The notes beneath the pieces were generated by a model. That model did no database searches. It was given only the letters and a program-made list of their open reading frames with translations, and had not been told where the DNA came from. Of a stretch of DNA of 64,000 bases, positions 641 through 36,734 are shown piece by piece. The stretch comes from Ostreococcus lucimarinus (taxonomy: Eukaryota). Each line of letters opens with the position of its first letter. Position 1 is the first letter of the stretch. The DNA lies in NCBI GenBank assembly GCA_000092065.1, contig CP000586.1; one strand, 5' to 3'. The position numbers and the translations under genes are program-made.

Positions 641-1700
641 ATGTTCTCGTCGTTCAGCATCACCGGTGCGGCGGCGGAGGTGTACGACGTCGAACTCGCG
701 TACGAAGACGCGCGTCGCGGGCGACGCGACGGCGAAAAGGCGTCGACGACGACGACGACGACCGAGGTGACGTTCGACTCCAAGGAGGATCCCGAGGAGG
801 TGATTGATAAACTCGTGAAACAGCGACGAGATCTGCCGTACGAGACGGGATACGAATGCGTCGTCATCCGAGCGCTTTGCTCGGCGTCGAAAGTCGCGAT
901 ACAGCTCGGGGTGGAGAAGTATCAACCGAGACCGGTGGCGTTGAAGGTGACTTCGAATGGAAAGATGAACGCGGGACAGTCGCACTCGAGCTTGGCGTCG
1001 GTGCTCAAGCACTGTCAGCTCGGCTCGCTGCGGAAGCTGAGCGTGCAAGATGGATTGTTGTCCACGGTTTTGTCTTTACGAGATAAATGGACCTCGGTTC
1101 GAGAGTTGGACATTTCGAACAACGCGTTGGAAACGCTGCCGAAAGAGCTGTTCGCGCGTTTCCCGTACCTGGAGGTTCTTCGTTTGGACGGGAATAAACT
1201 CGCGACTTTGCCCAACTTGAACGCGTTCACGCTTCTCAAAGAGTTGCATGCGAACGGCAACGCGTTGTCAACGCTGCCAATCGACATGGTGGAAGATTTG
1301 GATTTGGAAGTTTTGTCCGTCGAGTTCAACCGCTTGAGCAAGCTGCACGTCAAGTTGAAGGATTTGTCCAAACTGCGCGTGTTGCGGTTACTTGAGAATC
1401 CCATAGAGACGCTGCCCCGGTTGAATAAGACCGCCAATCAAGAGTGCTTATCGCTCGCAAACGTGAATGTTTCGAGGAATGGAGCAACAGGCGGTGTCTC
1501 CGTACAGGTTCGCGAAACGAGCTCGTCTTACTTTTCCAGCATAGTAGGCGGCAAGACAACGTCCAAGGAAAAAGCGTACAACGCTTTCCTGAGCTTGATC
1601 TTTCGTAGCAGTGAATGTCAAAACGCATTACTCGTCGCCGCCGTCGCGGTGATCGCGTCGAAGAGCCGAGAAAACTGCGAAGCCATAGTGCTGACCGAAG
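641..1700 (+). CDS. LRR-ARM-patatin-like phospholipase multidomain protein, exon 1 of 7 (N-terminal region plus leucine-rich repeats); whole gene 641-4583, about 1166 aa
   Basis: ATG at 641. LRR consensus repeats are visible (LDISNNALETLPKELF..LEVLRLDGNKLATLP..LKELHANGNALSTLP..LEVLSVEFNRLSKL..LRVLRLLENPIETLP). The frame ends at a donor CTGACCGAAG|gtgcgagc in phase 1. Confidence 0.7.
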
Positions 1701-1777
1701 GTGCGAGCGTTCGACCGCTTCTTCACTCTGGGGAAAATTTACATGTGAAACTGACCGTACGTCCGTCCGCACCACAG

Positions 1778-1932
1778 GAGCCGTGAATCATCTCATAAAT
1801 ATCGTCCATTCGTCGAATAAATCGCTGGTGTACGAGGCATCGCGCGCGTTGGCGCATATTTGCGGCGCACCGAACCTGGCGCGCGCGCTCAATGAAATGC
1901 ACGTCACGGAAGCAGTCGTTAATTTAATTCAG
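1778..1932 (+). CDS. LRR-ARM-patatin protein, exon 2 of 7 (armadillo-like repeat)
   Basis: Acceptor accacag|GA restores the frame (G+GA=Gly). It encodes AVNHLINIVHSSNKSLVYEASRALAHICGAPNLARALNEMHVTEAVVNLIQ and ends at donor CAG|gtgagtat. Confidence 0.65.
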
Positions 1933-2025
1933 GTGAGTATCCGAATTAATTCCGATATGAATAATTTCGTTCGAATTTCGCGTTAAAAGTTCATATACTA
2001 ATTTACTGACTCTATACGTGCATAG

Positions 2026-2103
2026 GACTCGAGCGAACTGCGAAATAGATGTGGATTGATTATTTTGAACGGTCTCGTCGGTTCTTCACACGACGTATCC
2101 CGG
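2026..2103 (+). CDS. LRR-ARM-patatin protein, exon 3 of 7
   Basis: Acceptor tgcatag| is followed by 26 codons (DSSELRNRCGLIILNGLVGSSHDVSR) and donor CGG|gtaagcgt. The intron carries a ttactgac branch-point-like motif. Confidence 0.6.
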
Positions 2104-2160
2104 GTAAGCGTGTTTCACATCGGTTGACGCAAGAATCTAACTGATCCTTTCGTAACGCAG

Positions 2161-2208
2161 GCATGTTATTCCGACAAATTAATCGGACGCTTGACAGAGT
2201 TCGTGGCG
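2161..2208 (+). CDS. LRR-ARM-patatin protein, exon 4 of 7
   Basis: Acceptor taacgcag| is followed by 16 codons (ACYSDKLIGRLTEFVA) and donor GCG|gtgcgtac. Without splicing, the read-through hits TGA. Confidence 0.55.
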
Positions 2209-2270
2209 GTGCGTACTTGCGTAAATAATTGCATCGTGAAAGTCTGAATTAATTAAATAATTTCCCTCAG

Positions 2271-2591
2271 GCGATTGATGAGCATATGCGGCTATTAGCG
2301 CTGAGAACTTTGGGTACTTTCGCTTTCGACGAAACTAATAAACGTGCGATGCTCAAACTGCGCGATCTCCACTCGATTCTCGTCGTATTCGCGCTCCGCC
2401 CGGAATTAAAGGCGGCGAGCGTTGCGGTGAAGAAGGAATCGATCCGAGTATTGGCTATTTTGGGCGAGAACGAGCTCGTGCGCCAGGCCACTGGTGCGCC
2501 TCCCATCACTGGTCGTGGTATACGCATTCTTGCGCTAGATGGTGGTGGTATACGCGGTAGAGCGACGTTGAAGATGTTGAAAAGAATTGAG
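2271..2591 (+). CDS. LRR-ARM-patatin protein, exon 5 of 7 (ARM repeat plus start of patatin domain with Gly-rich oxyanion motif DGGGIRG)
   Basis: Acceptor ttccctcag| precedes the ARM-like text LLALRTLGTFAFDETNKRAMLKL..IRVLAILGENELVRQ. This is followed by GRGIRILALDGGGIRGRATLKMLKRIE, the patatin GGGxRG motif. Donor is GAG|gtgaggaa. Confidence 0.7.
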
Positions 2592-2658
2592 GTGAGGAAT
2601 TATTTCATTTATTTATTTAGAGCTTGAATTCACGAATTTTTTGTTTCGTCGCGATCAG

Positions 2659-2727
2659 GAAGGAACTGGTCGTCCGATTCACGAATCATTCGATTTGGTG
2701 TGCGGAACGTCTACTGGTGGCATATTG
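2659..2727 (+). CDS. LRR-ARM-patatin protein, exon 6 of 7 (patatin nucleophile elbow GTSTG)
   Basis: Acceptor gcgatcag| precedes EGTGRPIHESFDLVCGTSTGGIL, which contains the GxSxG serine-hydrolase motif of patatin/PNPLA enzymes. Donor is TTG|gtacgaaa. Confidence 0.7.
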
Positions 2728-2813
2728 GTACGAAAACGCCCGTCTAGAGCGCACGAATTAATTATTTCGCCGTGAACAATTATTTTTTACTAACCAACAC
2801 ATTTTGCTCGTAG

Positions 2814-4583
2814 GCCACGGCGACGTCCATCAAAAAGCTCTCATTGGAGCACTGCGATAAGATTTATGTAAATCTTGGCAGCAAAATCTTCAGTCAAACA
2901 ACGCACAACGAAGAGACCTCTGGATCGAACTCTTGGCTCGGCAGTGTTGGTTCCATGTACACGAGTGGAAAGCAACAACTTCTCGCGACGACGCTCTATA
3001 GCAGCAAGCACAACACCTCGACCTTTGAAACCCTCGTTAGACAAGAGTGCAACCCTGAAGCAGAAGAGCCAACGTGGATAGACACCGCTGCGTCGGGCGG
3101 TCCGAAAGTTTTCTGCGTTTCTACCCAAACGAGTCAAAATCCGGCGCAGCCGTACTTGTTCAGAAATTACACGTATCCGGCTGGCAGTACGAGTGCGTAT
3201 TCCCAGGCAGGTAGTTGCGAATATCTATTGTGGCAGGGTGTCTGTGCATCCGCCGCTGCACCATACTACTTGTATGTTGACGCCTTTGCGATAGAAAACG
3301 AGCGCTGGGTTGATGGAGCCATGACTTGCAACAATCCGGCGATGATGGGTGTCCAGGAAGCTCGACGACTTTGGCCAGACAAGAAAATTGACTGTGTCGT
3401 GTCCCTCGGAAGTGGTAACTTCATCCCCCACGAGAGAGATCCACCCATTTCTCTCGTCGCTTTGGCCAAAGATGTCTTGTTTGACAGCGCTTGCGACACT
3501 GAACGCGTTCATGAAAGCTTGAGTACGCTTTTGCCACTCATACCCGGGGCGCAATATTTCAGGTTCAACCCGGTTGACGAGCGTTGCAAGATAGAAGTCG
3601 ATGAAACGGATGTTGGTGCACTCCAAGGCTTATTTGACGCTACTGAAGAGTACATTGTGGCAGAGAAGGAGATGTTCGACAAGGTATGCCATTTATTGAG
3701 AGACGTCGACGACACAGATGAGGTCACCGCCAAACTTCTCGACACGGAAATTAGCGGAACGCGCAGTGGTGTTCTAGTTTTGGAAGCGCCCCGTTACGAA
3801 GAGGAACTTTCTGAATGTACTTCTGCCTTGAAGAATTTTTGTGCTTTAAGATCGATATCGATACAGTGCGCAGATTACTCCGCCAATAGACCCATGAATC
3901 CGGGCGAAGCACTGAGCCATCTGAACACGGTGGCGGAGACGTCGACTGCAGCAGTGATTCATTTCAACTGCCACGCCGATTCTGACGGATTGATTCTCAC
4001 TTGGCAGAAAGATGTCACTGCTATTGCTGAGCCTAGCTCGGTCGCTGAACTATTTCTCAGTAGGTCTGGTAGCCCGTATGCGTCAGTCAGCGAACACTGT
4101 GAAGCTGAGGCCCACATTGAGGTGCATGGAATATTGCATACTTTCTCAGGCAAGCACGTGCAAGTGAACGATGTCGGCGAGCGCACGTCGTCATACTTGT
4201 TTAAGCGTACTGTCCCAATGGACTACCTGGACGGATCGACGAGTCGAGAGTTATTTGGTTTATGGCGTGGGAAGATCATCGTTTCTCAAAGTTCACTTCC
4301 ATCCTCACTCGTTGCGGCGTGGCTTGAAGCCGGGGCGAAATGTGTGGTCGCACCGTGCAAGGAAGGCGGCGTCGTTAACGTTGAAAGCGAACAGACAGAC
4401 TTTATGGCTGCATTCTATCACGCACTTTTTGTTGTGGGCGCGGATGCTACTGCGGCGATGAGCGCAGCTGCCATCGTGCAGCCGGCGTGCTCGTATTACC
4501 GTTGTCACGTTCTTGTTCAAGGTGGAATCGTGGCACTTCGTCCTGACGAAGAGTTTGACTATGATTTGGATGCGCACGTATAG
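2814..4583 (+). CDS. LRR-ARM-patatin protein, exon 7 of 7 (rest of patatin domain with catalytic Asp motif DGA, plus roughly 400-aa C-terminal region of unknown function)
   Basis: Acceptor ttgctcgtag| is followed by a long ORF containing ..LWQGVCASAAAPYYLYVDAFAIENERWVDGAMTCNNPAMMG.. (patatin DGA/G catalytic dyad Asp). The stop TAG is at 4581-4583. Confidence 0.75.
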   Translation, partial: ATATSIKKLSLEHCDKIYVNLGSKIFSQTTHNEETSGSNSWLGSVGSMYTSGKQQLLATTLYSSKHNTSTFETLVRQECNPEAEEPTWIDTAASGGPKVFCVSTQTSQNPAQPYLFRNYTYPAGSTSAYSQAGSCEYLLWQGVCASAAAPYYLYVDAFAIENERWVDGAMTCNNPAMMGVQEARRLWPDKKIDCVVSLGSGNFIPHERDPPISLVALAKDVLFDSACDTERVHESLSTLLPLIPGAQYFRFNPVDERCKIEVDETDVGALQGLFDATEEYIVAEKEMFDKVCHLLRDVDDTDEVTAKLLDTEISGTRSGVLVLEAPRYEEELSECTSALKNFCALRSISIQCADYSANRPMNPGEALSHLNTVAETSTAAVIHFNCHADSDGLILTWQKDVTAIAEPSSVAELFLSRSGSPYASVSEHCEAEAHIEVHGILHTFSGKHVQVNDVGERTSSYLFKRTVPMDYLDGSTSRELFGLWRGKIIVSQSSLPSSLVAAWLEAGAKCVVAPCKEGGVVNVESEQTDFMAAFYHALFVVGADATAAMSAAAIVQPACSYYRCHVLVQGGIVALRPDEEFDYDLDAHV

Positions 4584-4616: not shown

Positions 4617-7331
4617 CTATTCTACTTCGATGTCCCCCAAACTTTCAGCGTACTTTTTCAACTCCTTCTCATTGATGACTTCGACGGACTCGACCCAACC
4701 AACGTACTGAAGAATACTGTAAGTCAACACCTTACCGGCATCTTGGATGATCGCCCAGATGATGACGTAAAGCCAACAATATCCGGACAGCTGCCAGGAA
4801 ATTCCTACCATGCCGTTTCCGAAAGGCCAGTACACCGCTAAAAGAGTCGACGCTCCAGTGGCGATGATGAAGGCGCCGACCAAGATGACACTTGGAGCGC
4901 GCGACCAGAACCAGCCCTTGGTTCTCGAGTTAAATACTGAGAAGTAATCAGAAAGACTGATTTTCAAGTAAATAAGCGTCTGGATCTCTCCGTATGACAT
5001 CGCTGGGAGACCAAGTTGAGACCAAGTGCTCGTTGGATCAACCGATGATAACGCTGAGCTCAGCAGAAGTACGGATGATGCCAAGGCTGTCAAGCCTATA
5101 GCGGAAGATACGATGTACAGGATATTCAAATCCCATTTTTCTGGTTGCATGGAAGCGTGCACGTTATCGTACGCCACAGAAATAATGGTTCCATCGTTCA
5201 ATATCGTAATCGTAACAAGTGCGATGACCGGAATAGCAAAGTGCTGCGGCCAAGACTCATTGAACTGACTAGGATGATAGAATATACACGAGATGAAGAA
5301 AAAGAACAACAACTGCTCTGTACACGCCACCCGATAAATCACAAAGTTTTTCATTCTTTGGAAGATTTTGCGGCTCGTGACAATCGCCGTAACGATGGTG
5401 GACAGACCGGGTTCGGTGAGAACAATATCAGCCGCAGCTTGCGCCGCGCTCGTAGCACCTTGTACAGCAATTCCGACATCCGCCCGCTTTAACGCAGGCG
5501 CATCATTCACACCGTCTCCAGTCATGCCGACGAGCATCCCTTGCTGTCGCAAAGCTTCTACAATCAGATATTTGTGCTCTGGGAATACTTGTGCGAATCC
5601 GTCCGCCTTTCGACACAGTTCACCATAATCTCGTCCTAGCGTGGTCGCCTTCTCTAGTTCCTCCGCTTTCATGAGAGGAAGTTTTTCAGTGCCAAGCACG
5701 TTTGTGCCCATACCCAACGTTCTGCAAGTTTCAACCGCAATGGCGCGGTGATCACCGGTGATCATTTTCACACTGACACCAAATTCGTTGGCGCAGTCAA
5801 TGGTATGCTTTGTGTCCGGGCGAGGAGGATCCAAAAAGGTCAAAATACCCAAAAATTCGAACTCGTTGCTATTGTTCTTTGTTTTCGCCACCGCGAGCGA
5901 ACGAATACCGCGATGAGCTAACTCGAGAACGTGCTTCTCGACCTCTTGACCGATCGTGGACTTGTTTGCACTCAACTCTAAAACCACGTGCGGGGCACCT
6001 TTCGTCACCTTGAACACGTTACCGTTCTTCTCCTTGATCGTGCTTTCTGTGCGCTTGATGGCTGGATCAAACGGAGTGTGATCGGTCTGTTCGTAATCGT
6101 TCAATGCGCTGATGTTAACAGCGTTTAATACCAAAGTATCGAGGGCGTCCTTTGGCGGCTCCCACCATTTCGCCGCCAACGCCGCGAGTTTGAGGACTTC
6201 TTCACGCGAAACACCCGGAACAAAGATTGGTAAATCCTTCTGAAGAACCATCTTGTTCAGAGTGAGCGTTCCTGTCTTGTCTGAGCACAAGATTGTCATA
6301 CCCGCCAACTCTTCAACAGAAGAAAGCCGCGCTACGATGGCCTTCTCCGCCGCAAGTTCATGACAACCTAAAGCCAACGTCGTCGTACAAACCACTCGCA
6401 AAGCGATAGGAATAGATGCAACAAGAAGGACTACGTTGAACGCTAAGACCTCCCAGAAATCAACCCCGATAGAAAGTAAATAAATGAACACCAGAGTACA
6501 GATGAAGAAACCGACAGCGACCAAGATGTATGTAATCTCTCTGAGTACTTTTTCAAAGTGCCCGAGCTCATCGACTCCTTGAACTAAGTCCGCGGTTTTC
6601 CCAAAGAACGTCTGGCTACCCGTCGCTGTGACGGTAGCTTCGATTTCTCCGCGCGTCACGGTGGAACCCATTTTTGCTTCCGCACCTGGAAACATTGCGA
6701 CCGGCAACGATTCCCCCGTGAGCGCGGATTGATCCACTTGAATAGGTTTTCCATCTCTAATCGTGCAATCCGCCGGGATCGCACCCCCCGCGCCGAGGAC
6801 GACGATGTCCCCGGGTACTAACTTTGTGGCGTTGATGATGTACACGCGTCCTTCGCGTTTCACCGTCGCCTCCGGTTTCAGCGACTCTCTCAACGCCGCG
6901 ATGGCGTCACCGGCCTTCATTTCCTCTATAAACCCCACGAGCACGTTCAACAATTGCAGCACCACCAACACGATGACGTCCACGAGACCATCCATGGACT
7001 GATGAATGTACGTCTCGATGGATTCGATGAGGATGGCTGCCCAGATCATCATCGGCATCGGTTGTACGAACTCCAACGCGAGTTTCAACCACATGCTATC
7101 CTCCTTCACCTTGAGCTGATTAGGTCCGAATAACTCCAACCTACGCGCCGCCTCGTCCTCGTTCAAACCGCTCTCGCCGGTGTTGAGCAAACTCTCGCGC
7201 TCGACGCCCATGTAGAAGCGCGCGTCGTCCGTCGTCTCCGTCCCATACGCCGCGCTGTCCTCCTTTCCTCGCCCGAGAAGCGGTGTCGAGCGAAGATCAG
7301 CGTCTTCATCTTCGCCTCCGCCGCGCGACAT
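4617..7331 (-). CDS. Plasma-membrane-type P-type H+-ATPase (P3A ATPase)
   Basis: The ORF carries the phosphorylation motif CSDKTGTLTLNKM and the hinge motif GDGVNDAPALKRADVGIAV. The N-terminal ..EDEAARRLELFGPNQLKVKEDSMW matches PMA/AHA proton pumps, and about 10 TM segments are present. The ORF track opens at a TTG at 7433; the first ATG (MSRGGGEDED) is at 7331. Confidence 0.9.
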   Translation of the reverse strand: MSRGGGEDEDADLRSTPLLGRGKEDSAAYGTETTDDARFYMGVERESLLNTGESGLNEDEAARRLELFGPNQLKVKEDSMWLKLALEFVQPMPMMIWAAILIESIETYIHQSMDGLVDVIVLVVLQLLNVLVGFIEEMKAGDAIAALRESLKPEATVKREGRVYIINATKLVPGDIVVLGAGGAIPADCTIRDGKPIQVDQSALTGESLPVAMFPGAEAKMGSTVTRGEIEATVTATGSQTFFGKTADLVQGVDELGHFEKVLREITYILVAVGFFICTLVFIYLLSIGVDFWEVLAFNVVLLVASIPIALRVVCTTTLALGCHELAAEKAIVARLSSVEELAGMTILCSDKTGTLTLNKMVLQKDLPIFVPGVSREEVLKLAALAAKWWEPPKDALDTLVLNAVNISALNDYEQTDHTPFDPAIKRTESTIKEKNGNVFKVTKGAPHVVLELSANKSTIGQEVEKHVLELAHRGIRSLAVAKTKNNSNEFEFLGILTFLDPPRPDTKHTIDCANEFGVSVKMITGDHRAIAVETCRTLGMGTNVLGTEKLPLMKAEELEKATTLGRDYGELCRKADGFAQVFPEHKYLIVEALRQQGMLVGMTGDGVNDAPALKRADVGIAVQGATSAAQAAADIVLTEPGLSTIVTAIVTSRKIFQRMKNFVIYRVACTEQLLFFFFISCIFYHPSQFNESWPQHFAIPVIALVTITILNDGTIISVAYDNVHASMQPEKWDLNILYIVSSAIGLTALASSVLLLSSALSSVDPTSTWSQLGLPAMSYGEIQTLIYLKISLSDYFSVFNSRTKGWFWSRAPSVILVGAFIIATGASTLLAVYWPFGNGMVGISWQLSGYCWLYVIIWAIIQDAGKVLTYSILQYVGWVESVEVINEKELKKYAESLGDIEVE

Positions 7332-20262: not shown

Positions 20263-20550
20263 GCGCGCGCGGTTCGCCGCGGGACGACGCGGCGACGCGT
20301 CGGAATAGCACACGTAGTTTGTCACACGAGTTACTTAGTCACGCGTTCGGCGCGGTTTTCCGCGCGTTTTCCGCCGTCTCGTCCCTCGCGCGTTCGCGCC
20401 GGTTCGAACCGGCGCGCGCGCGCGCGTTTCGCGCGCGCGTCGAGGGTTTAGGCTGTGCCGCGTCGATGGTTTCGGATGGGTCGGCGTCACACGCGCGCCG
20501 TTCGCGCGCGCGGTCGTCGCTCGATCGCGCGGTCGCGCGGTCGCGCTGAG

Positions 20551-23500
20551 ATGGAGCTTTTGCTCGAGTTCGACGACGACGCGCACTACCTCGACGACGA
20601 CGCCCGCGCGCGACGCCGCTCGACGTCGTCGTCCGCGGTCGTTGGGCGCTGGGCGCGGGACGACGACGACGACGACGACGACGAGACGTACGTCGCGGCG
20701 ACGCTGCGCCGAGCGGTGCGGCGATGCGCGCCCGGAAACGATGGAAGCGATGACGACGCGAACGATGCGTTCGAGGCGCTGACGCGATTCGTGAGCGATG
20801 GGGACGAGGACGCGCTCGCGCTGACGGTCATCAAGTTGTTGGAACTCGTGGGCGGGGACGCGGCGGTGATGATGGCGCGAGGAGACGATGAAGACGACGA
20901 TGGGAACGAAAATGTGGGAGAAAATGATGAACACGGACACGGGATGGACGTGGCGATCGCGAGATGCGACGCGGGGTACGTGAAATTGGGCGTGGAACTG
21001 GCGAGGACGATGCCGGAGACCAAGTACGGGCCGAGTCATCGAGGAGCGTTGTTGCGAGGCGTGCGGCACGTGTTGCGGTCGTACATGGGGAATTGTCACG
21101 CGGTGTGCGAACAAGGCGTGGTACAGGAGCTGCTGCGCTCGCTCGACGCGCTTTTGAGATCGAATGAAAACGGCAAAGCCGACGGTGATGTGAAAATCGT
21201 CGCCGAGTGCGCTCGACGCGCGGCGGGATTTTCCATGTCGGCGCTGGATTTGAAAGTGTGGCTAGAGTTAGCCGCGGCGAGCACGCCCGAATCTAGAGGG
21301 TTCCTGCTAGATCAACTCAACATGACGCTGCAGACGAGGTTTAGCACCGGTCCAGCGGAATTGTTCCTGTTGGATGGGGAAAGTAGCGGGATATTAGGCT
21401 CGGCGCAACCCAAGTGGCCGTTTACGGAAGGTTTGGCTTTTGTGACTTGGGTGTACTTGGAAAGCGTTTCTGCGTCAGAGACTACCGCTGCGTCAGCAGC
21501 ATCGTACGCTGCTGCCGCTTCAGCATCGCAGGTCGTGGATGCATCTCCACTCGCCGCCGCTGCAGTTGCCGCCGCCGCCGCGGGCGAAGACGAAGTGCAC
21601 ATGCCGCGGCTGTTTAGTTTTTTATCCGCCGAAGGACAAGGGGTTGAATGTTACTTTCACGATGGTTTCTTGATTTTAGAGACAAATGGTGTTAAAGAAT
21701 CCAGAATGACGCTCCCGTTCTCTCACAAATTCCCTCTCAAGCGATGGTTTTGCTTGGGAATTGAGCATAAACCAGCGAGCGTTCGAACCGGCGGAGCCGA
21801 AACCCGGCTGTACGTGAATGGTATATGTGTCGAAACCCACAAGTTTGATCTACCGAAAATAAGCAAGCCACTTGGGTTCTGTTGTATAGGTACAAATCCT
21901 CCAGCAGCTATGGCCGGGCTACAACGTAAGCGGCGTCAATGCGCACTGTTTGCAAGTCTCGGACCAGTGTACATTTTCAAACAGGCGCTTGGCGGTCATG
22001 CGATGAAGGCACTTTCAGCGCGTGGTGGATCTTATGTTCCGCGATTTTCATCGAACGATGACAAAGGAGGCGATGTCAACGTCGAAGATGTCTTAGATAA
22101 GGTATTAGCACCGACTATACTTCAGGTTCTCCATCCTCGAATGGCGAGCAAGAACTACGTCTTGGATATTTCTCCTGCAGGAGTGTCCATCGAGTCCAAA
22201 GCGGCCCTGTTGGGCGGCACAACTGTAGCGAGGCGCAACTTGATGCGAGACTCTATTTGGGCATCGTGTGAAAGTGGACCAGCCATCATGCTACCGTTCG
22301 CGTGTCCGTTGGTTAGCTCAAGGAATTTAGCACCGGAGATTTCAGATGCTCATGACGATTTCGCCAGTGCGGGTTTATCCATACGTTCAGTTATCGGAAT
22401 AATAGCCGGTGCGTGCGAAAACCATCCTCCAAACTTGAAAGTCATGGAAGACAAAAACGTCCCAAGTCTCTTGGCGCACGCTTTACCGTTCGCTATGGAT
22501 GCTCTACGTCGACAGTTTTCTGGCGACATTCTCGACGACGAGGAGGAAGCCATTCTTGACGCCATTGAGCATCTCTTATCCGTGTGTAAGAGCGAGAAAG
22601 TGTTATCAAAGCAGCTTCTTTCTACGCTTGTGTTGGACTTCAAACCTTGGAACGGCTCCGGAGCACGCGTAGTTCGGCGTCGCTTGAACATATGTTCTTC
22701 GCTCTGTAACACGAGCCCAGATTTGATGCAAGAAATTTCAGCGCTGCAACTTCTGTTTGATAATGGACGTCGTTGGCTTTCACCAGCGACGTCTCTAATG
22801 GGAGGAATACTGCATAGTAGTTCTACGAAGTCAGTTATGGATGATAGAGGAGAATTACGGGTATCAGAGAAGGAGTTGCTGGGATTGATAGACGACTTGT
22901 TGGTGTCCGTGAATTTACTCGTCAACACCAGTGAACACATGGACGCAAAAGTTGAAATCATAATCGGCTTTCTTGCAGAGTGCCCGTGCCCTCACATGCT
23001 CTCAGCTACCATAAAGCTAGTCCATTCAATGATTGTCTCACCTAAGGCTGATAGAGCGAACGAATTTTTATTTGCCTTTGTGTCCAAAGGAGGTGTCGAG
23101 GTCTGCATGGGTCTCATGCGCGCACTTGCTCTCCGAGGAAAATTTGATCATCAACTTCAGGGTGTGCAGGGCTTGTTTGCCGAATGTGTGAGATTATTTG
23201 GCTATATGTTAGAAACCGGGTGCGTGAGCGCAAATAAAACGACCGAAGTAGGCGGTAGCAAGAAGGTCACCAAGGGAAGCATAGAAAGAGCTGTTCGGTA
23301 TGCTTTCATCAAAGGCTCAGCTGAACTGCTAACAGTTGACGTGTACGAGGCGATCATTCAGTCCTCTATCTCAATCAATCTCGCAAGCATAAACATGACT
23401 GAGCCGGCTCGGCTCATCAGCGGTGGTATGCTTGGATCTATGCTCTCAACTCTACCGAAGTGCGAAGAGAGTGTGTCTAGTCGAGCGCTGAACGACGTCA

Positions 23501-26500
23501 TGTTGATTGCGTGCGCATACGCAGACAATCGCAACTTATTACTTTCTTTGCCCGAATTCCCAGAGTGGTTAGTGGAGATACTCGTGCAGTCCACAATCTC
23601 TAGCGCGTTGAGTGCTGCAAACGACCTGCTAATGATCCTGTTGCAACATTCAATGCGATTGCCGGATGGTTGGCGCGTTCTTGAGACAGTGATTGAATCG
23701 ATCAAGATGGTCACCAAAGATGATGTAAAAAAGCGAGCCGAAGTCCAGCAGCTAGTATTGCAAAGCTTGGCGACGTTTATGATCAGTGAGTTGAAAGGCA
23801 TAAGCGTTTCAGATGATAATCGAACAAAGAAGTCGAGAGAAAACCTGAGCGCAAACAGCAACGCAACGTTTGAAAACATCATCGCTTTGTTAGACATGAT
23901 TGAAGATCATTTGAGGTTACTTAGCGCTGAGTCACTATCGCCAATTCATTCATACGATATTGGTAAGATCTCGAACGCCCTAGTCTGCTACGGGGCATAC
24001 GCTACGGACTCAGCAAATGGATGGGTCAACCGTTGTCGCTTGATTGAAGGTCTCGTCGCGACGCCAAGCGCAGGTTCAACAGCAATGGGCGGTCAATCTC
24101 TCGAACTGCTACGTCTCACGCAGCAAATGATAAATTTTATGGTCGGTATGCAATGCACTGGTGCAGATTCATACTCACTGTTGCTGAAGGATGATGAGTT
24201 GGTCCTCTTATTTCTCAGACTCACTCTCGCGTATTTTCGCGAAGAAGATCTTCCAATAGATGACGATTCGTATGATAGCGCCCTACCGCTGATGCCGGCA
24301 CATATCGTGAATACACTGCCGTCGCTAACCTCCGGTAGTTCTTCGATTTCCGATGCGATTGTATTTGAGGCAAAGCATCTGTGGGGCACGACACAGTCGA
24401 GCGAGGCTGGTAAGAAGTTGGCAGTGTTGCACAACCTGCTTGTACCTCTGTTGCAAGCGGCATCGGTGCGTAAAACGGCTCGTCTCGCACCAGGAGCCAT
24501 AGCGCTTCTGTTAGACGAAGTTTGGCGGTACTCAAAACTCAAGGGACGAAAAGTGGTGTATATCAAGGCGATCACCACTTACTTGATCGCCTTGGTTGCT
24601 CGCTGGCGGGAAGTCATCGTTGCGGGCGAGAAGGATGATATCTCTCCAAAGCTGCGTTCGCTTGCATCAGGATCGTTGAGCTCAGCAATAATATCTCTAT
24701 GTTCAGCTGAGTGGACCAAGATACTCATGTCGTCAACAATCAAGGAAACGCTCATATGTGTAGTCAAATCAACGCCTATGGGTGAAACGCGAAACAGCGT
24801 CGTAGCCGCCCGAGGCCCAGATGCGACAGAGTCGAGACTGAGTGCGCAGAGAGCTGTTCATCACACAAGGACAGATACTTTCAAAAAGTTTGTGACGACT
24901 TGGGAAGGTGAATACGTGCACATCTCTATGTCGTCGAAATGGCTCGCAGCGCTCTCAAAGGAAGCTTCTAGACGTACTCTATCCATCGCCGCCGAAGGCG
25001 AAAAGAAAAGCGAAGTTATCGTCGCTTGGGAAGGTTACATGAGAGCCTTGCAAGCGAGTAATTCTCTGGTGACGAAAATTAAGGATGATGGCGATGTCGC
25101 ACGTTTAGGAATCGACCCATCAGAGAGCGGTAGACGACGTCGTTACTCTCTTTCTCGCATGGCGATGCGACAGCGTTTAACGCATTTGGCACCAGTCGAC
25201 TCAAAGGCGATGGAAATTAAGCTCCCTGTCCGACAACAGCATGACGCATCGGACGACGAAGATGACCTTCCTCTGAGTCCACAGCGATCGATGAACAACG
25301 AAGAGTTAAACGAGGTGATGGCTGCCACTGCCGCACTGGCAGTCGCGGCAAATCGTAGCGAAGTAAAGAAGTCCAATTATGAGTGTTCTGCGACAATGGT
25401 CACTCCTCTGGACATCTACAGTGGCAAATTCACAATCTCTGACAAGGAAATGATATTTTACACCGAAGACAACTCGCACGTCTGGTCTTGGCCCCTGGAG
25501 CATCTTCATCAAGTTCAAAGTCGAAGATATTTGCTTCGTCGAAGCGCTCTGGAATTTTTCATGCTAGACCGCATGACTTACTTTATTGATTTCGGTACTG
25601 CTGAACAAAGGCGGCAAGTTTTCCGCGTGTTGATCAAGCTGAAGCCCAAAAATTTCGTTCCACTCTATCTTGAGACCAGTAAGCCGGAAGCTTTGCTCCG
25701 CAAAAGTGATATCACGTCACGGTGGATTCGTCGTGAAATTTCAAATTTTGACTATATCATGGCGCTGAATACACTTGCCGGAAGAAGTTACCAAGACATA
25801 ACGCAGTATCCAGTGTTCCCGTGGGTTCTCACGGATTACACCTCGGAAACTCTAGATTTGAGCAATCCAGACGTGTATCGTGATTTGCGGAAGCCTATCG
25901 GAGCGCTGAACCCAGATCGACTTGCGAGAATCAAGGAGCGCTACGACTTTTTTGACGACCCTGAAATCCCGAAGTTTCATTACGGGAGTCATTATAGCTC
26001 ATCTGGAACGGTCTTATTCTATCTCTTGCGTGTCGATCCATTCACGACGCTCGCATATGAGCTGCAAGGTGGTAAATTTGATCATGCAGATAGACTTTTC
26101 CACGACATTGCTTCGACGTGGAAGAGTTGCTACAATGACATGAGTGACGTCAAAGAGCTTGTACCTGAATTCTTCTACCTTCCAGAAATGTTCAAAAATG
26201 TCAACAATATTGACTTCGGAGTCACTCAATCTGGTGAGAAAGTCGACGCCGTCATACTTCCTCCGTGGGCAAAATCACCGGAAGACTTCGTCGCAAAGCA
26301 GCGCGAGGCTCTTGAGAGTGACTACGTCAGTAAGAACCTTCACCACTGGGTCGATCTCATTTTTGGCTACAAGCAAAGAGGCAAAGCTGCAGAGTCTGCG
26401 TGTAATGTTTTCTACTATATGACCTATGAAGGTGCAGTTGACGTCGAAGCTATTCAAGATCCAATCCTGCTGAAGGCAACGCAGGATCAAATTGCTTGCT

Positions 26501-27846
26501 TCGGGCAAACTCCCTCGCAGCTTCTGACCATACCACATCCTGGTAGGCAACGCGCGGCTGATTCAGTTATCGGGTGCCATTGGTTATTTGATAACGGCGA
26601 CAAAGTGAACGACTACCTTCTCAATACACCAAGTTACGCTGACAACCGTGTCGCCTTCATGGACATTCTCTCCACCGGTCAACTAGTCGTAATATCCACA
26701 GCTTTGGAGATGAAGACGCATCGCTTCATGCCAAGTGTGCCAAGTGGTGCGGGGTTACCATTTACTTTTGAGCCTGCGAAAGAACAAAGCACGCTCGGTT
26801 CGTTCATGGGTTCGATTCGTCGACGAGCTGGATTTACTGATGTCACAGAAGCTGTGAAATTTAACGCCAAACTTGATCCAAAGCTGATCAAGCCTGGTCG
26901 AAAGCTTCCGTGCGCCATGCTTCCCGGCGGACGTCACGTGGTTATTGGTGGTCACGCCGATAACTCATTGAAGGTATTCAACTGCGAGAACGGGTCGATA
27001 GAGAGTAATGAAACGGGCCACCGCGCGCCTGTAATTTCGATTTCAATCTCCGCCGACGGGAGAGTTCTTGCGACTGGATCTGTCGACGGTACGATTGGAA
27101 TCTGGCTTATCAGAATACCAACGGAGAAAGTTACACTAGGTGAGAATCTACGAGAAACAATCGCTCCAATCATTCGAGTCGACGTCAACTCCATTTTCAA
27201 CGAAGGATCAACCGTTGCAAACGTCATTGATCGTTTGACAACTGACGATGCTCCGACGACAAAGATGACGCTAAATGGGCCCATTAGCTTACTGAAAGGG
27301 CATGGTGAGTCAATTACATCGCTCGCCATAAACACGAACTTGGATTTAATTTTGGCGGTGACTCCAGCTGCTGGGGCTTCTCTTTATTCCGTGATGAAAG
27401 GCGCCGCCATGGTCACATTTCCCAACCTTCGAGGTTCCCTTTGCGCTATTTCTGACGAAGCCTTTTTGGTTGTTTGGAACGAGTTGCAACGCACACTCAC
27501 TGTGGTATCATTGAATGGAAACATCATCTCAACAATTTCTTTGGTGGATACGTGTTCCACTTTAACCACGTTACTTGTTTCGAAGGACGGTTATCATCTC
27601 GTGGCTGGCACGGCATCCAGTGAGGGAAAAGTGGCTGTAGTTGCTTTTGACTTACCCTCGTTACGTTTGCGCCATCGCTGGGAGTTCGAATCGAATTCCG
27701 ACATCAGTCAAGTCGTCATGACGGCTGACAATACGAATATACTCGTCTCGACGCACGAAGGAGCCGTGAGGGTACTGGTAGATCCAAGTCTCGCGGCGCG
27801 AGTACTTGAGTCCGCTTTGCAAGCTGGCTGGTCGTCAGTCGTTTGA
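20551..27846 (+). CDS. BEACH-domain protein of the neurobeachin/LRBA/LvsA type (ConA-like lectin, PH-like, BEACH, C-terminal WD40)
   Basis: BEACH core ..DITQYPVFPWVLTDYTSETLDLSNPDVYRDLRKPIGALNPDRLARIKERY..FHYGSHYSSSGTVLFYLLRVDPFTT... An upstream ConA-like region and WD40-like repeats at the C-terminus are present. The ORF is 2.4 kaa with no stops; ATG preferred at 20551 (MELLLEF). Confidence 0.9.
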   Translation: MELLLEFDDDAHYLDDDARARRRSTSSSAVVGRWARDDDDDDDDETYVAATLRRAVRRCAPGNDGSDDDANDAFEALTRFVSDGDEDALALTVIKLLELVGGDAAVMMARGDDEDDDGNENVGENDEHGHGMDVAIARCDAGYVKLGVELARTMPETKYGPSHRGALLRGVRHVLRSYMGNCHAVCEQGVVQELLRSLDALLRSNENGKADGDVKIVAECARRAAGFSMSALDLKVWLELAAASTPESRGFLLDQLNMTLQTRFSTGPAELFLLDGESSGILGSAQPKWPFTEGLAFVTWVYLESVSASETTAASAASYAAAASASQVVDASPLAAAAVAAAAAGEDEVHMPRLFSFLSAEGQGVECYFHDGFLILETNGVKESRMTLPFSHKFPLKRWFCLGIEHKPASVRTGGAETRLYVNGICVETHKFDLPKISKPLGFCCIGTNPPAAMAGLQRKRRQCALFASLGPVYIFKQALGGHAMKALSARGGSYVPRFSSNDDKGGDVNVEDVLDKVLAPTILQVLHPRMASKNYVLDISPAGVSIESKAALLGGTTVARRNLMRDSIWASCESGPAIMLPFACPLVSSRNLAPEISDAHDDFASAGLSIRSVIGIIAGACENHPPNLKVMEDKNVPSLLAHALPFAMDALRRQFSGDILDDEEEAILDAIEHLLSVCKSEKVLSKQLLSTLVLDFKPWNGSGARVVRRRLNICSSLCNTSPDLMQEISALQLLFDNGRRWLSPATSLMGGILHSSSTKSVMDDRGELRVSEKELLGLIDDLLVSVNLLVNTSEHMDAKVEIIIGFLAECPCPHMLSATIKLVHSMIVSPKADRANEFLFAFVSKGGVEVCMGLMRALALRGKFDHQLQGVQGLFAECVRLFGYMLETGCVSANKTTEVGGSKKVTKGSIERAVRYAFIKGSAELLTVDVYEAIIQSSISINLASINMTEPARLISGGMLGSMLSTLPKCEESVSSRALNDVMLIACAYADNRNLLLSLPEFPEWLVEILVQSTISSALSAANDLLMILLQHSMRLPDGWRVLETVIESIKMVTKDDVKKRAEVQQLVLQSLATFMISELKGISVSDDNRTKKSRENLSANSNATFENIIALLDMIEDHLRLLSAESLSPIHSYDIGKISNALVCYGAYATDSANGWVNRCRLIEGLVATPSAGSTAMGGQSLELLRLTQQMINFMVGMQCTGADSYSLLLKDDELVLLFLRLTLAYFREEDLPIDDDSYDSALPLMPAHIVNTLPSLTSGSSSISDAIVFEAKHLWGTTQSSEAGKKLAVLHNLLVPLLQAASVRKTARLAPGAIALLLDEVWRYSKLKGRKVVYIKAITTYLIALVARWREVIVAGEKDDISPKLRSLASGSLSSAIISLCSAEWTKILMSSTIKETLICVVKSTPMGETRNSVVAARGPDATESRLSAQRAVHHTRTDTFKKFVTTWEGEYVHISMSSKWLAALSKEASRRTLSIAAEGEKKSEVIVAWEGYMRALQASNSLVTKIKDDGDVARLGIDPSESGRRRRYSLSRMAMRQRLTHLAPVDSKAMEIKLPVRQQHDASDDEDDLPLSPQRSMNNEELNEVMAATAALAVAANRSEVKKSNYECSATMVTPLDIYSGKFTISDKEMIFYTEDNSHVWSWPLEHLHQVQSRRYLLRRSALEFFMLDRMTYFIDFGTAEQRRQVFRVLIKLKPKNFVPLYLETSKPEALLRKSDITSRWIRREISNFDYIMALNTLAGRSYQDITQYPVFPWVLTDYTSETLDLSNPDVYRDLRKPIGALNPDRLARIKERYDFFDDPEIPKFHYGSHYSSSGTVLFYLLRVDPFTTLAYELQGGKFDHADRLFHDIASTWKSCYNDMSDVKELVPEFFYLPEMFKNVNNIDFGVTQSGEKVDAVILPPWAKSPEDFVAKQREALESDYVSKNLHHWVDLIFGYKQRGKAAESACNVFYYMTYEGAVDVEAIQDPILLKATQDQIACFGQTPSQLLTIPHPGRQRAADSVIGCHWLFDNGDKVNDYLLNTPSYADNRVAFMDILSTGQLVVISTALEMKTHRFMPSVPSGAGLPFTFEPAKEQSTLGSFMGSIRRRAGFTDVTEAVKFNAKLDPKLIKPGRKLPCAMLPGGRHVVIGGHADNSLKVFNCENGSIESNETGHRAPVISISISADGRVLATGSVDGTIGIWLIRIPTEKVTLGENLRETIAPIIRVDVNSIFNEGSTVANVIDRLTTDDAPTTKMTLNGPISLLKGHGESITSLAINTNLDLILAVTPAAGASLYSVMKGAAMVTFPNLRGSLCAISDEAFLVVWNELQRTLTVVSLNGNIISTISLVDTCSTLTTLLVSKDGYHLVAGTASSEGKVAVVAFDLPSLRLRHRWEFESNSDISQVVMTADNTNILVSTHEGAVRVLVDPSLAARVLESALQAGWSSVV

Positions 27847-33642: not shown

Positions 33643-35754
33643 TCATCGCTTTTCGTGGCGCACACGCGAGACGCCGAAATAAAATGTGGCCAAGTACACT
33701 GGGACGCTGAGCGACGCGTACAGCAACGACATCCACTTTCCGCGCTCGGCGAGCGAAAACGTTCGCAGCACGGACTCCCCCGTGATCGCATCGCATTGGC
33801 TTTGATTGGAGAAAAACATGCGTAAAAGCCGTAAAGATGATTCTGGCAAGGACATGGACTCGATCAAGTCGTCTAAACCGCCCGTGTCTGAGCCGCAGTG
33901 ATCAAAGAATTCGCGGCCGTCGTACTCGTTCACCATGATCGACGACCACGCCCACTGGATGAACGAGATATTGTACAACCATCTCCACGCGTTGTGTATC
34001 GTGCGAGCTCGAATGAAGAAACCTCCGACTAACATGTTTATCGTTGCGTAAATTGGGAGCACGCTCGCGGGGCCGACGTCACCCGGAATCGCAGCTGAGA
34101 TCGTGCAGCCGATCAGCTGCGAGATGGTGAAGTTCACGAGACAGGTGAAAACAAAAAAGAAGAACGCAATCGCGGTTGGATTGAGCCCGACGCACCAATA
34201 CAAAACCGCGGAGAAAGACAAAGAGGCGAGGATGGTCATGGGCATTTCGGCGATAATTTTTGAAGCGACGTAATTTCCCGGACGATAATAGCTTTCGTGA
34301 AACTCGCGAGTGTAGACTTCGCGCTCAAATTTCACTTCTTCCACGTGGACTTGTGCCATGAACGACGGTAGTATGCACGCGATGAACATGATGCCGTTGG
34401 TGTTCAATATCCCAGTTGGAGTCTTTTTCTGCTGATAGAAAAACGCGCTCAGCAGAGCGGCGAGAATGACGTACAGACCACATCTTGTAAACCAGAAGAT
34501 CGCGTAGCGCCATTTTGGGGCATCCTTATACCGAATCATGATGCCCAACTCAGTGAATGGATTGTGCGCATATTCTGAATCTTTGCCTGTGCCGTTGGTC
34601 TTTGAAGATTCGGTGTTGATCGTCACCGCGTTCATCGGCAGTTTGAGCGACGTGATTTCTGCCACGTGCTCCAAGTTGGACGCGCGCAGGCTCGATTCGG
34701 CGTAATATTTGGCGCACTCCTGACCAGTGGATATGGTGTCGATAAAGTACTCTGCGATGTTAAAGCCAGCCTCGTATGGAAACCCTTGATTGATGAAAAA
34801 GTCCATGGGATTGTGCCCAGCTTCGCCGAAATACGCGAGCATGCCAGAGGTGAGCAAAATCAACTTGTTGAAAGATTGGTAGATCGGCATGGAAGGTTGG
34901 TGAACGGTCACCAGGAGCGTGCGACCATCCTCCGCTTGAAGTCTGGATAGACAATTGATCACATCAGCTGCCATTGAAGAGTCCAAACCCGAAGTAGGCT
35001 CGTCCAAGAACATCGCTCTGGGATTTGACGTGCACAGCGCGGACGCGACGGCCAATCGCTTGAGCTCTCCACCGCTTATCCCGCGAATCACGTGGTTGCC
35101 GACTAGGGTATCCCGACACTTTGAAAGATTCATCTGATCAATCACGTGCTCCACTAACTCCAACTTACGCTTTACGTCCTCAGTTGACGTGCCAGGAAGC
35201 TTGATCATCGCTGCAAACGTAACTGTCTCCGCGACAGTCGCGCCTCCGAAGAAGGCTTCATGTTGCGGAACATACGCCGTGTACTTCTTGATCGTCGCCA
35301 AACTGGGCACCACACCATCAAAGAGAATCTTACCACGTATCCTGCCTTCCGTCTTGCGCCCAGATATTATGTCCAAGAGCGTCGTCTTCCCAGATCCAGA
35401 CTGGCCCATCACCGCACACATCGCGCCTCTTTCGATGACTCCGCTGATTTCGTTCAAAATGACCTTGGTACGCGCCACTGGTTCGATCGAGGACTCTTGC
35501 TTGCAAGTGCAGGAGTTGTGAACTGATCCAGATGAGACTTTAATGTCGCATCCCACGCCGTCGAGCGCGATGGTAAGACCGTTTTGCTGCGATGAAATCG
35601 AGGCCACACGATGAGCACCGTGGTGCTTTGCTTCGAGCACACCTTGCTGCAACTGTTTCGCTGTTTCGATGTCGACGCACGACACGCTATCTAAGCTGTT
35701 TGCGCTCGAGAGATTATTTGCAGTTCCGTCATGCCGAGATTGCCTTGCGCCCAT
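33643..35754 (-). CDS. ABCG-family (white/WBC-type) half-size ABC transporter
   Basis: Walker A GQSGSGKTTLLDIISGR, signature ISGGELKRLAVASAL, Walker B MFLDEPTSGLDS and a 6-TM ABC2 domain are present. The ATG at 35754 (MGARQSRHDG) is preferred because the longer ORF would overlap the 3-prime end of UTP11. Confidence 0.85.
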   Translation of the reverse strand: MGARQSRHDGTANNLSSANSLDSVSCVDIETAKQLQQGVLEAKHHGAHRVASISSQQNGLTIALDGVGCDIKVSSGSVHNSCTCKQESSIEPVARTKVILNEISGVIERGAMCAVMGQSGSGKTTLLDIISGRKTEGRIRGKILFDGVVPSLATIKKYTAYVPQHEAFFGGATVAETVTFAAMIKLPGTSTEDVKRKLELVEHVIDQMNLSKCRDTLVGNHVIRGISGGELKRLAVASALCTSNPRAMFLDEPTSGLDSSMAADVINCLSRLQAEDGRTLLVTVHQPSMPIYQSFNKLILLTSGMLAYFGEAGHNPMDFFINQGFPYEAGFNIAEYFIDTISTGQECAKYYAESSLRASNLEHVAEITSLKLPMNAVTINTESSKTNGTGKDSEYAHNPFTELGIMIRYKDAPKWRYAIFWFTRCGLYVILAALLSAFFYQQKKTPTGILNTNGIMFIACILPSFMAQVHVEEVKFEREVYTREFHESYYRPGNYVASKIIAEMPMTILASLSFSAVLYWCVGLNPTAIAFFFFVFTCLVNFTISQLIGCTISAAIPGDVGPASVLPIYATINMLVGGFFIRARTIHNAWRWLYNISFIQWAWSSIMVNEYDGREFFDHCGSDTGGLDDLIESMSLPESSLRLLRMFFSNQSQCDAITGESVLRTFSLAERGKWMSLLYASLSVPVYLATFYFGVSRVRHEKR

Positions 35755-35933
35755 GTTCGTGAGCGGTGCATTCTGAAGTCTGAAATCTGAGTTTGCCTCG
35801 TGGTTATCAACTCGACGAGATTGAACGTTCACGAATCGACAGGTGAAATCACGGTATCGTGTCAGTATAATTACATTCAAGCTAAAATAATCGCTACTGA
35901 AGACGAATGGGATTCGCGCACGGACACTCGCAT

Positions 35934-36734
35934 CTATTTCTGGCGTTCTTGCTTCCATTTGAAGTACGACGTCTTTGTTCCATCGGGATTCGTCTTCGTA
36001 ATCTTCACCTTGTGCCCTTTGGAGTGAGAAATGACTTTTTGCATCGCCATCTCTGCGCTCATGTCCTTCAGCTTCTTCGCTCGTTCATCGTAGGCGGTGT
36101 ACGTCTTGTACGCACCCTTCTGCATCCGCGTGAGCCTCTTCATAGAAATCTCCGATGCGCCAGTGCCGCTCGAGCCGGCGGCGCCGTCGCTTCGCACGCC
36201 GACCACCGCGTCTTCGTCCTCCAACTGCGCCCGACGAGGACGATTGAATGTTCGATTCACGAGCTCAGGGACGGTATCGAAATGCTCCGCCGCATCGAAA
36301 CTTTTCGCCTCTTCTTCCGTGTCAACGAAGACGGTGTGTTTGCGCTTCACCGGAACGCCGATACCGTGCAAATTTCGCTTCATCTTCTCCACCTTCTTAC
36401 CCTCAATCGCCGCCTTCATTTGCACGTACTTCACATCCTGCGTCTTCATCACCCGTAACTCTTCTTCGGTGTATTTGTTCTGTTCCGTGCTCCTCGCCAC
36501 GTGCACCCCGTCGTCCGTCTTCGCCTTTTGCATGGCAAAGTAAAACTCATCCGGATTCCTATACGCCGCCTTTCGCTTCAACGCGTTGATCGCATCTTCC
36601 TTCTTGTGATAATCTCTCGCGCGAAGCACGTAATCCTTCTTCTTCTCCAGCAAACCGAACCGTTTGCGCTCGCTCAACTGCGACCGCTCCTTGTGCGTCT
36701 TGCGTTTGACGGCGTTACGAAGCGAGCTCGACAT
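35934..36734 (-). CDS. UTP11: U3 snoRNP protein UTP11
   Basis: MSSSLRNAVKRKTHKERSQLSERKRFGLLEKKKDYVLRARDYHKKEDAINALKRKAAYRNPDEFYFAM matches the UTP11 family N-terminus. 266 aa. Confidence 0.85.
   Translation of the reverse strand: MSSSLRNAVKRKTHKERSQLSERKRFGLLEKKKDYVLRARDYHKKEDAINALKRKAAYRNPDEFYFAMQKAKTDDGVHVARSTEQNKYTEEELRVMKTQDVKYVQMKAAIEGKKVEKMKRNLHGIGVPVKRKHTVFVDTEEEAKSFDAAEHFDTVPELVNRTFNRPRRAQLEDEDAVVGVRSDGAAGSSGTGASEISMKRLTRMQKGAYKTYTAYDERAKKLKDMSAEMAMQKVISHSKGHKVKITKTNPDGTKTSYFKWKQERQK

Follow-up and report, generated by a model that had tools for sequence, protein, structure and literature searches.

The 64,000-nucleotide (nt) stretch of Ostreococcus lucimarinus DNA analysed here (assembly GCA_000092065.1, contig CP000586.1; referred to in full as the window) carries, on its plus strand between positions 641 and 4583, a gene whose predicted product combines leucine-rich repeats (LRRs), armadillo (ARM) repeats, a patatin-type lipase domain and a C-terminal domain of caspase-like fold. 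It is probably an ortholog of the plant phospholipase pPLA-I (AtPLAI/AT1G61850). Splicing of seven exons gives an uninterrupted 3501-nt coding sequence of 1166 amino acids plus a stop codon, which agrees with the length of about 1166 residues proposed when the DNA was first read from its letters alone (the original prediction). All six introns are of the GT..AG type, 57-93 nt long, and several contain CTAAC/CTGAC branch-point-like motifs. The gene is laid out as follows.

641-4583, plus strand: whole gene, ATG to TAG, 1166 codons; probable pPLA-I ortholog, from the splice model and the match to Ostreococcus tauri protein P0001.
641-1700, plus strand: exon 1, residues 1-353, ending in phase 1; an N-terminal region of ~145 amino acids, the LRR block and the first helical repeats.
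1701-1777, plus strand: intron 1, 77 nt, GTGCGA..CACAG.
1778-1932, plus strand: exon 2, 155 nt, equal in size to its O. tauri counterpart.
1933-2025, plus strand: intron 2, 93 nt, GTGAGT..ATAG; gives an in-frame stop if retained.
2026-2103, plus strand: exon 3, 78 nt.
2104-2160, plus strand: intron 3, 57 nt; site of the sole indel relative to marine metagenome contig L002.
2161-2208, plus strand: exon 4, 48 nt.
2209-2270, plus strand: intron 4, 62 nt, AT-rich.
2271-2591, plus strand: exon 5, 321 nt; here the ARM region ends and the patatin domain begins.
2592-2658, plus strand: intron 5, 67 nt.
2659-2727, plus strand: exon 6, 69 nt; nucleophile elbow.
2728-2813, plus strand: intron 6, 86 nt, with an ACTAAC branch-point-like motif.
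2814-4583, plus strand: exon 7, 1770 nt including the stop codon; remainder of the patatin domain, then the CHAT-like domain at the C-terminus.

Splicing is required because four of the introns, whose lengths are not divisible by three, shift the frame if retained, while introns 2 and 3, whose lengths are divisible by three, both contain in-frame stops, as read from the sequence. Each of the six junctions (1700/1778, 1932/2026, 2103/2161, 2208/2271, 2591/2659 and 2727/2814) is bounded by GT and AG. The best database match of the spliced protein is the O. tauri protein P0001 ('Patatin/Phospholipase A2-related', 1168 amino acids), with 66% identity over 100% of the length of the model and an alignment free of gaps at every splice junction. 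The start codon and the N-terminal sequence MFS(S)FS are common to both genes, and the O. tauri gene also contains six introns, at homologous positions and in the same phases, with internal exons of equal size (155, 78, 48, 321 and 69 nt). Across the locus, contig L002 and the window share 97% identity. The two differ at 1.5, 0.3 and 6.2% of codon positions 1, 2 and 3, respectively, and at 6.8% of intron positions; there is one indel within the gene, of 1 nt, and 12 of 12 splice dinucleotides are kept. Exons therefore show coding-type substitution and introns a neutral rate, and only 20 of the 1166 amino acids are changed. Finally, a transcriptome-derived Micromonas protein (P0207, MMETSP) carries the LRR and patatin parts on a single transcript. 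As judged by sequence comparison, the one-gene, seven-exon model is secure because the O. tauri introns match, the L002 substitution pattern follows the exons and the Micromonas transcript joins LRR and patatin; the single gene and the six junctions of the original prediction are upheld. Near the N-terminus, a run of (ACG)6 at 744-761 encodes six consecutive threonines, and the aligned position in O. tauri has no such run.

The family to which the protein belongs was established by a profile search run without the LRR columns, as a full-length profile had drawn in unrelated LRR proteins. It recovered, from land plants, over 100 proteins about 1300-1370 amino acids long that are named 'phospholipase A I' (one of them 'like AT1G61850'), as well as orthologs from Selaginella, a liverwort, Mesostigma, Chlorokybus and Micromonas. 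Among the non-algal matches that carry names, nearly all are called phospholipase A I or bear generic patatin/PNPLA names. In BLASTP, the Hibiscus protein described as 'like AT1G61850' aligns with 36% identity over 825 amino acids (E 2e-142), in a stretch that begins at the first LRR and runs unbroken until the patatin domain ends, and again over a second, C-terminal segment (E 2e-18). Co-occurrence of LRR and patatin domains, which the original prediction proposed to look for, is found in nearly all full-length family members, in the form LRR + Arm + Patatin. The view that this architecture fits no characterised family is thus overturned: the layout is shared by more than 100 collinear 'phospholipase A I' proteins, N-terminal LRRs are what sets pPLA-I apart from pPLA-II and from pPLA-III, which lacks the motif (PMC4253999), and the class I pPLAs are described as the longest proteins, with an 'LRR + Pat_PNPLA8' layout (PMC10970459). 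The LRR-ARM-patatin architecture is already known, and the protein is most probably an ordinary, conserved pPLA-I ortholog. From these sequence relationships, we put at roughly 0.9 the probability that 641-4583 holds one spliced nuclear gene, belonging to an Ostreococcus-type prasinophyte (Mamiellophyceae) and orthologous to pPLA-I. No paralog of it is present in the 64-kb window.

The domains and motifs of the protein map to the window as follows.

1076-1465, plus strand: LRR block of about five repeats, residues 146-275 (Pfam LRR_8 and LRR_4).
1538-2489, plus strand: predicted armadillo/HEAT-like helical-repeat region, residues ~300-520, broken by introns 1-4.
2505-3707, plus strand: patatin (PNPLA8/9-like) catalytic domain, residues ~526-875, broken by introns 5-6 (Pfam, PDB 6aun, PADLOC).
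2538-2558, plus strand: Gly-rich oxyanion motif DGGGIRG, residues 537-543, read from the sequence.
2704-2718, plus strand: nucleophile elbow GTSTG, residues 570-574, with Ser572 encoded by the TCT codon at 2710-2712; invariant across the family.
3312-3320, plus strand: catalytic Asp744 in D-G-A, invariant across the family and followed by the invariant N750-N751-P752.
3720-4532, plus strand: CHAT-like (caspase-hemoglobinase fold) domain, residues 880-1150, with His960-x3-His964 corresponding to the HxxxHG motif and Ser1071 (4293-4295) at the Cys site.

In Pfam scans, the LRR block (LRR_8, 8.9e-11; LRR_4, 1.9e-7) and the patatin domain (Patatin, E 3.5e-18, residues 534-754) score above threshold. 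The oxyanion loop, the GxSxG elbow and the catalytic Asp are all present, and D537, G538-540 and G543 are invariant in 24 family members. A profile search thus does find a patatin domain with both residues of the dyad, Ser572 and Asp744, the finding on which the original prediction had staked its reading, and at the level of its residues the active site is intact. The order LRR, ARM, patatin, with the three catalytic signatures in sequence, is likewise borne out by Pfam, motifs, PDB matches and AlphaFold2 (AF2) modelling. The region that precedes the LRRs (O. tauri P0001 residues ~13-105, equivalent to window residues ~14-106, nt ~680-958) has no Pfam match. In the full-length AF2 model of P0001 it forms a small beta-beta-alpha-beta-beta-beta domain with a predicted local distance difference test (pLDDT) score of ~70-85, and may be beta-grasp-like.

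The likeness to pPLA-I of the AT1G61850 type extends over the whole protein: an N-terminal region, LRR, ARM, a PNPLA8-like patatin domain and a C-terminal domain are collinear throughout, with about 32-37% identity and with identical catalytic motifs. In the C-terminal domain, H960, G969, W974, E983-P984, the AGAK stretch around A1085 and C1141 are shared. The algal protein is about 150-200 amino acids shorter than its plant counterparts and lacks the acidic and low-complexity inserts of their C-terminal region. Among animal enzymes, iPLA2beta (PLA2G6/PNPLA9; 6aun) and PNPLA8 are near counterparts. The closest solved catalytic domain is that of iPLA2beta, which aligns in both its GGGxxG/GTSTG half and its DG.../YFR(F/L)NP half; it is also the best PDB match of the window protein (E 2e-15, both halves and the YFRFNP tail). 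The window protein and iPLA2beta share a common logic, in which a patatin Ser-Asp lipase is joined to a scaffold of N-terminal repeats. However, the scaffold is built of LRR and ARM repeats in the window protein and of ankyrin repeats in iPLA2beta, and iPLA2beta has no C-terminal caspase-fold domain. No ankyrin family is detected in the Pfam scan of the window protein at E <= 0.1.

The part that follows the patatin domain had been described as a C-terminal region of unknown function; it is indeed a conserved region, but one to which a CHAT/caspase fold with a degenerate dyad can now be assigned. An AF2 model of residues 880-1166, made from a 29-sequence alignment, has a pLDDT of 88.6 and a predicted template modelling (pTM) score of 0.86. 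It displays the caspase-hemoglobinase fold, and the structure that matches it best is that of the CHAT protease in SAVED-CHAT (8tl0). Pfam CHAT (PF12770) is sub-threshold on the window domain (E 0.015) and matches 4 of 12 family members (best 2e-4). When a profile of the domain was used in a HMMER search of 1.84 billion representatives, only 296 proteins were found at E <= 0.001, and most of those checked are pPLA-I fragments. The same search retrieved standalone proteins of ~190-200 amino acids (E about 1e-8 to 1e-9) with the canonical H-x3-HG and VVSGAC motifs. All five of those tested match Pfam CHAT (best E 3.2e-10; P0340, 36 bits against a cutoff of 24 bits). Alignment of the pPLA-I C-terminal domain to the profile of these standalone CHAT proteins with hhalign gives a probability of 99.7% and an E value of 2.5e-25 over 184 columns, pairs His960 and His964 with the two CHAT histidines and pairs the catalytic Cys with Ser1071. 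A beta-hairpin subdomain of about 60-75 amino acids is inserted in the pPLA-I domain. Outside the lipases, these standalone proteins (P0340, P0337, P0347, P0349 and P0328) are the nearest relatives of the C-terminal domain of pPLA-I; in them HG and SGAC are intact, and they share with pPLA-I an N-terminal 'E..R.PE' strand and a C-terminal 'YRCY/H' motif.

The comparison with CHAT and other clan CD peptidases (SAVED-CHAT 8tl0, the Craspase component Csx29, separase, gingipain) reveals where the pPLA-I domain departs from them. The catalytic Cys of VVSGAC is replaced by Ser1071, the Gly that follows the catalytic His is replaced by Ala after His964, and the beta-hairpin insert is an addition; the His-Cys dyad is therefore incomplete. 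None of the 122 family members examined has a Cys at the position of Ser1071. At the position of His964, the second His of the CHAT-like HxxxH, Ostreococcus and early-diverging streptophytes retain the histidine, whereas seed-plant pPLA-I has Gln. An alternative placement of the catalytic Cys at position 189 of the C-terminal domain, where streptophytes have a conserved Cys, was rejected, as the hhalign alignment to bona fide CHAT proteins gives position 192 (Ser1071); with it fell an apparently intact dyad in Mesostigma, Selaginella, the liverwort and one Ostreococcus clade. Taken on its sequence relationships, then, the C-terminal domain of pPLA-I is CHAT-like, its dyad is degenerate, and it is most likely a pseudoprotease. 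CHAT is absent from the precomputed Pfam lists of every pPLA-I member listed, in which the ~290-amino-acid tail is unannotated. The literature searched contained no paper describing a CHAT domain in pPLA-I, and linked CHAT with patatin in fungal NLR (nucleotide-binding, LRR) reviews only.

By analogy with the Arabidopsis member and with animal iPLA2, the protein would be a cytosolic, Ca2+-independent lipid acyl hydrolase. Its Ser-Asp dyad would release fatty acids from membrane phospholipids and galactolipids, including oxidised ones, and this release could serve lipid-derived signalling as well as the turnover and repair of membrane lipids. For the LRR-ARM solenoid, which is strongly conserved, the most likely role is to bind a conserved partner protein or to gate the active site, as may be envisaged from the ankyrin repeats of iPLA2beta. 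The C-terminal caspase-fold domain, having lost its cysteine nucleophile, is most likely a non-proteolytic regulatory or oligomerisation module. The enzymology of AtPLAI on which this proposal draws is partly general background and partly secondary citation. One such citation states that pPLAs hydrolyse monogalactosyldiacylglycerol and phosphatidylglycerol and that pPLAI keeps up basal jasmonate (PMC4371839, citing Yang et al. 2007).

Several points weigh against assigning the protein to pPLA-I and giving it this function. The activity and substrates are extrapolated from Arabidopsis AtPLAI, the one member for which acyl hydrolysis of phospholipids and galactolipids is known (Yang et al. 2007, as cited in PMC4371839), and the roles of the LRR-ARM and CHAT-like parts are ones that we infer. 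The full-length AF2 model of the O. tauri ortholog is low in global confidence (pTM 0.51). The original prediction expected LRR, Arm and patatin profiles to be detected in the protein; LRR_8 and Patatin are, but Arm falls slightly below threshold on the window protein (18.4 against 20.6 bits). We nevertheless hold to the ARM assignment because the region matches designed armadillo-repeat proteins in the PDB (3e-11), because Arm/HEAT_2 score above threshold in the aligned region of plant orthologs and because residues 296-519 of the O. tauri AF2 model are all-helical repeats; armadillo-type repeats are thus the predicted content of the segment between the LRR block and the patatin domain. Finally, Ostreococcus has no clear canonical oxylipin/jasmonate pathway (bioRxiv 10.64898/2026.02.10.705097). 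Therefore, the jasmonate, auxin and light roles of the Arabidopsis protein are not simply transferable, and the physiological output must differ.

A broader reading of the same modules can be entertained. From picoalgae to angiosperms, pPLA-I might be an ancient fusion, derived from a conflict or cell-death system, in which a patatin lipase and a caspase-like domain, both 'executioner-type' modules, were joined to a scaffold of repeats. In Ostreococcus, where His964 is kept, the protein might still act in a virus- or stress-triggered response of membrane lipids and cell fate, with the CHAT-like domain as a switch operating through oligomerisation, substrate-mimic binding or residual non-canonical hydrolysis. 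This reading is speculative and, in our estimate, rather unlikely.

An immune-style sensor-effector was suggested in the original prediction by analogy with NLR/SARM-type proteins and with the CapE effectors of cyclic-oligonucleotide-based antiphage signalling systems (CBASS). On this view, a pathogen or viral ligand would be detected by the repeats, which would then set free a membrane-destroying patatin lipase, perhaps with the caspase-like domain, leading to cell death, much as in NLR/SARM proteins or CapV/CapE effectors. The patatin domain does lend itself to such a comparison. The PADLOC 'Effector - Phospholipase' models, which we take to represent the CBASS patatin-effector class, match it in full (PDLC00758, E 2e-36, residues 531-856), and solved CBASS lipases are among its PDB matches, CapV and cyclic GMP-AMP-activated phospholipases aligning over the N-terminal motif region at 1e-7 to 1e-11. 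The structure that the C-terminal domain resembles most, SAVED-CHAT, belongs to a prokaryotic defence system. However, CBASS patatin effectors are stand-alone bacterial proteins of about 330-360 amino acids, activated by cyclic nucleotides and encoded beside a CD-NTase, whereas the window protein, although homologous in its catalytic domain, is a spliced eukaryotic multidomain protein of 1166 amino acids with unrelated neighbour genes. Its CHAT-like domain lacks the catalytic Cys, and its Pfam scan contains no NB-ARC, NACHT, STAND or TIR domain.

The LRR block, moreover, behaves in sequence comparisons like a conserved protein-interaction surface and not like a diversifying ligand sensor, because it is as conserved as the patatin domain (76% against 75% identity to O. 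tauri) and aligns essentially without indels to Micromonas, Selaginella and Brassica, at 35-39% identity. It holds 2 of only 20 amino-acid changes relative to the close relative L002. Few repeats, about five, conserved like the catalytic domain across Viridiplantae and free of indels, are the opposite of what is seen in ligand-tracking immune LRRs, and the fast-evolving repeats of NLR/STAND/SARM proteins are thus as absent here as their NTPase or TIR domains. Conserved synteny and the single copy in the window point in the same direction. Two observations from the literature favour the immune reading: AtPLAI knock-outs show raised Botrytis susceptibility, according to PMC11855271 (citing Yang et al. 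2007), and the pPLA ortholog Ostme11g03410, possibly the counterpart of the window gene, is reported to be constitutively over-expressed in prasinovirus-resistant O. mediterraneus lines, in which oxidised galactolipids are lower (bioRxiv 10.64898/2026.02.10.705097). On balance, the sole real link to NLR/SARM/CBASS layouts is homology of the patatin domain, and we consider an immune sensor-effector improbable; an ordinary pPLA-I ortholog is the reading that we retain.

The neighbourhood and composition of the gene bear on its origin. The window is eukaryotic DNA, densely packed with genes. Its neighbours encode a P-type H+-ATPase, a nucleotide-diphospho-sugar transferase and Alb3/Oxa1-type and MlaD-type proteins, and synteny is kept with O. 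tauri chromosome 6 (CAID01000006.2) and with marine metagenome contigs; in O. tauri, as in the window, the gene is followed by a convergent P-type H+-ATPase gene. In the window, this plasma-membrane-type ATPase gene (4617-7331, minus strand) converges on the pPLA-I gene with 33 nt between the stop codons; therefore, the 3' untranslated regions must overlap or be extremely short. The exact ATPase protein is also found on hundreds of Tara and other ocean metagenome contigs, and the source organism is therefore abundant in the sea.

The original prediction singled out the gene as a compositional and structural outlier. The structural part stands, as six short AT-rich introns occur among largely intronless neighbours (9 of the 11 genes fully contained in the syntenic O. 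tauri stretch are intronless). The compositional part is accounted for by gene length and a gradient of GC content at third codon positions (GC3). GC content averages about 0.57 over the window and is about 0.51 in this gene, but the ATPase gene (0.52) and the open reading frames (ORFs) at 20452-27843, 33646-36084 and 43387-45003 (0.51-0.52) equal it. In the three long genes of the window in which GC3 was followed from 5' to 3', it falls from 0.77 to about 0.48-0.5 (pPLA-I), from 0.76 to about 0.5 (ATPase) and from 0.80 to 0.46 (the 2464-codon ORF at 20452-27843, plus strand). Long genes average a lower GC because GC3 decays along them; therefore, a foreign origin is not needed. GC peaks of 0.65-0.74, spaced every few kb in the window, seem to fall at gene 5' ends and in intergenic regions. 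GC-biased gene conversion near promoters is one possible cause of the GC3 gradient.

All six introns lie within residues 353-577, in the ARM and N-terminal patatin region, and their positions are kept in two Ostreococcus species. To see whether they are ancestral plant introns, they were compared with the Selaginella ortholog: none coincides with any of its 17 introns, and the nearest pair is 6 alignment columns apart. They may be either lineage-specific gains or ancestral introns lost in Selaginella. The loci used for the intron comparison are listed below.

Window, 1701-2813, plus strand.
L001, 11058-12187.
L003, 501-5395.

The low GC content and the short introns could also be taken to mark a compositionally foreign gene, acquired horizontally or lying in an outlier region such as the block of low GC and small introns on Ostreococcus chromosome 2; this is hardly credible, as the O. 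tauri ortholog lies among the same neighbours on a chromosome-6 contig, the GC3 decay is common to the three long genes and the pPLA-I family is vertically distributed across green plants, and both horizontal transfer and a chromosome-2-type region were rejected on the grounds of the synteny and the general gradient.

Equally far-fetched is the idea that the splice model is an artefact joining two or three separate genes (an LRR protein at 641-1786, a small ORF and a patatin protein at 2844-4583), as metagenome annotations that call ORFs of 381, 113 and 542 amino acids at the locus would have it: intron positions, phases and internal exon sizes agree with the curated O. tauri model, the codon-position pattern spans all exons while the introns are neutral, the lone 'patatin' ORF would lack the Gly-rich loop and the GTSTG nucleophile encoded by exons 5 and 6, and homologs that are collinear over the full length occur in over 100 species, the Micromonas transcript among them. 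Separate genes survive only as a fragmentation of the locus by prokaryotic gene callers in metagenomes. In the marine annotations (L002 202-4143; L004, L005 8749-12691), the gene is split into a 381-amino-acid 'LRR' ORF, an ORF of 92-113 amino acids and a 542-amino-acid 'weak Patatin' ORF, a caution that prokaryote-style gene calling in marine metagenomes breaks up the spliced pPLA-I gene.

Ostreococcus-type algae are among the smallest and most gene-dense free-living eukaryotes, and a complete four-module enzyme with intact catalytic motifs has been kept in this minimal green alga. The CHAT-like tail is a new detail and offers a testable hypothesis of regulation for a poorly understood plant lipid enzyme. 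Because the protein is kept in a host with no clear jasmonate pathway, the ancestral job of pPLA-I was probably basic membrane-lipid turnover or signalling and not the hormone-linked roles known from Arabidopsis.

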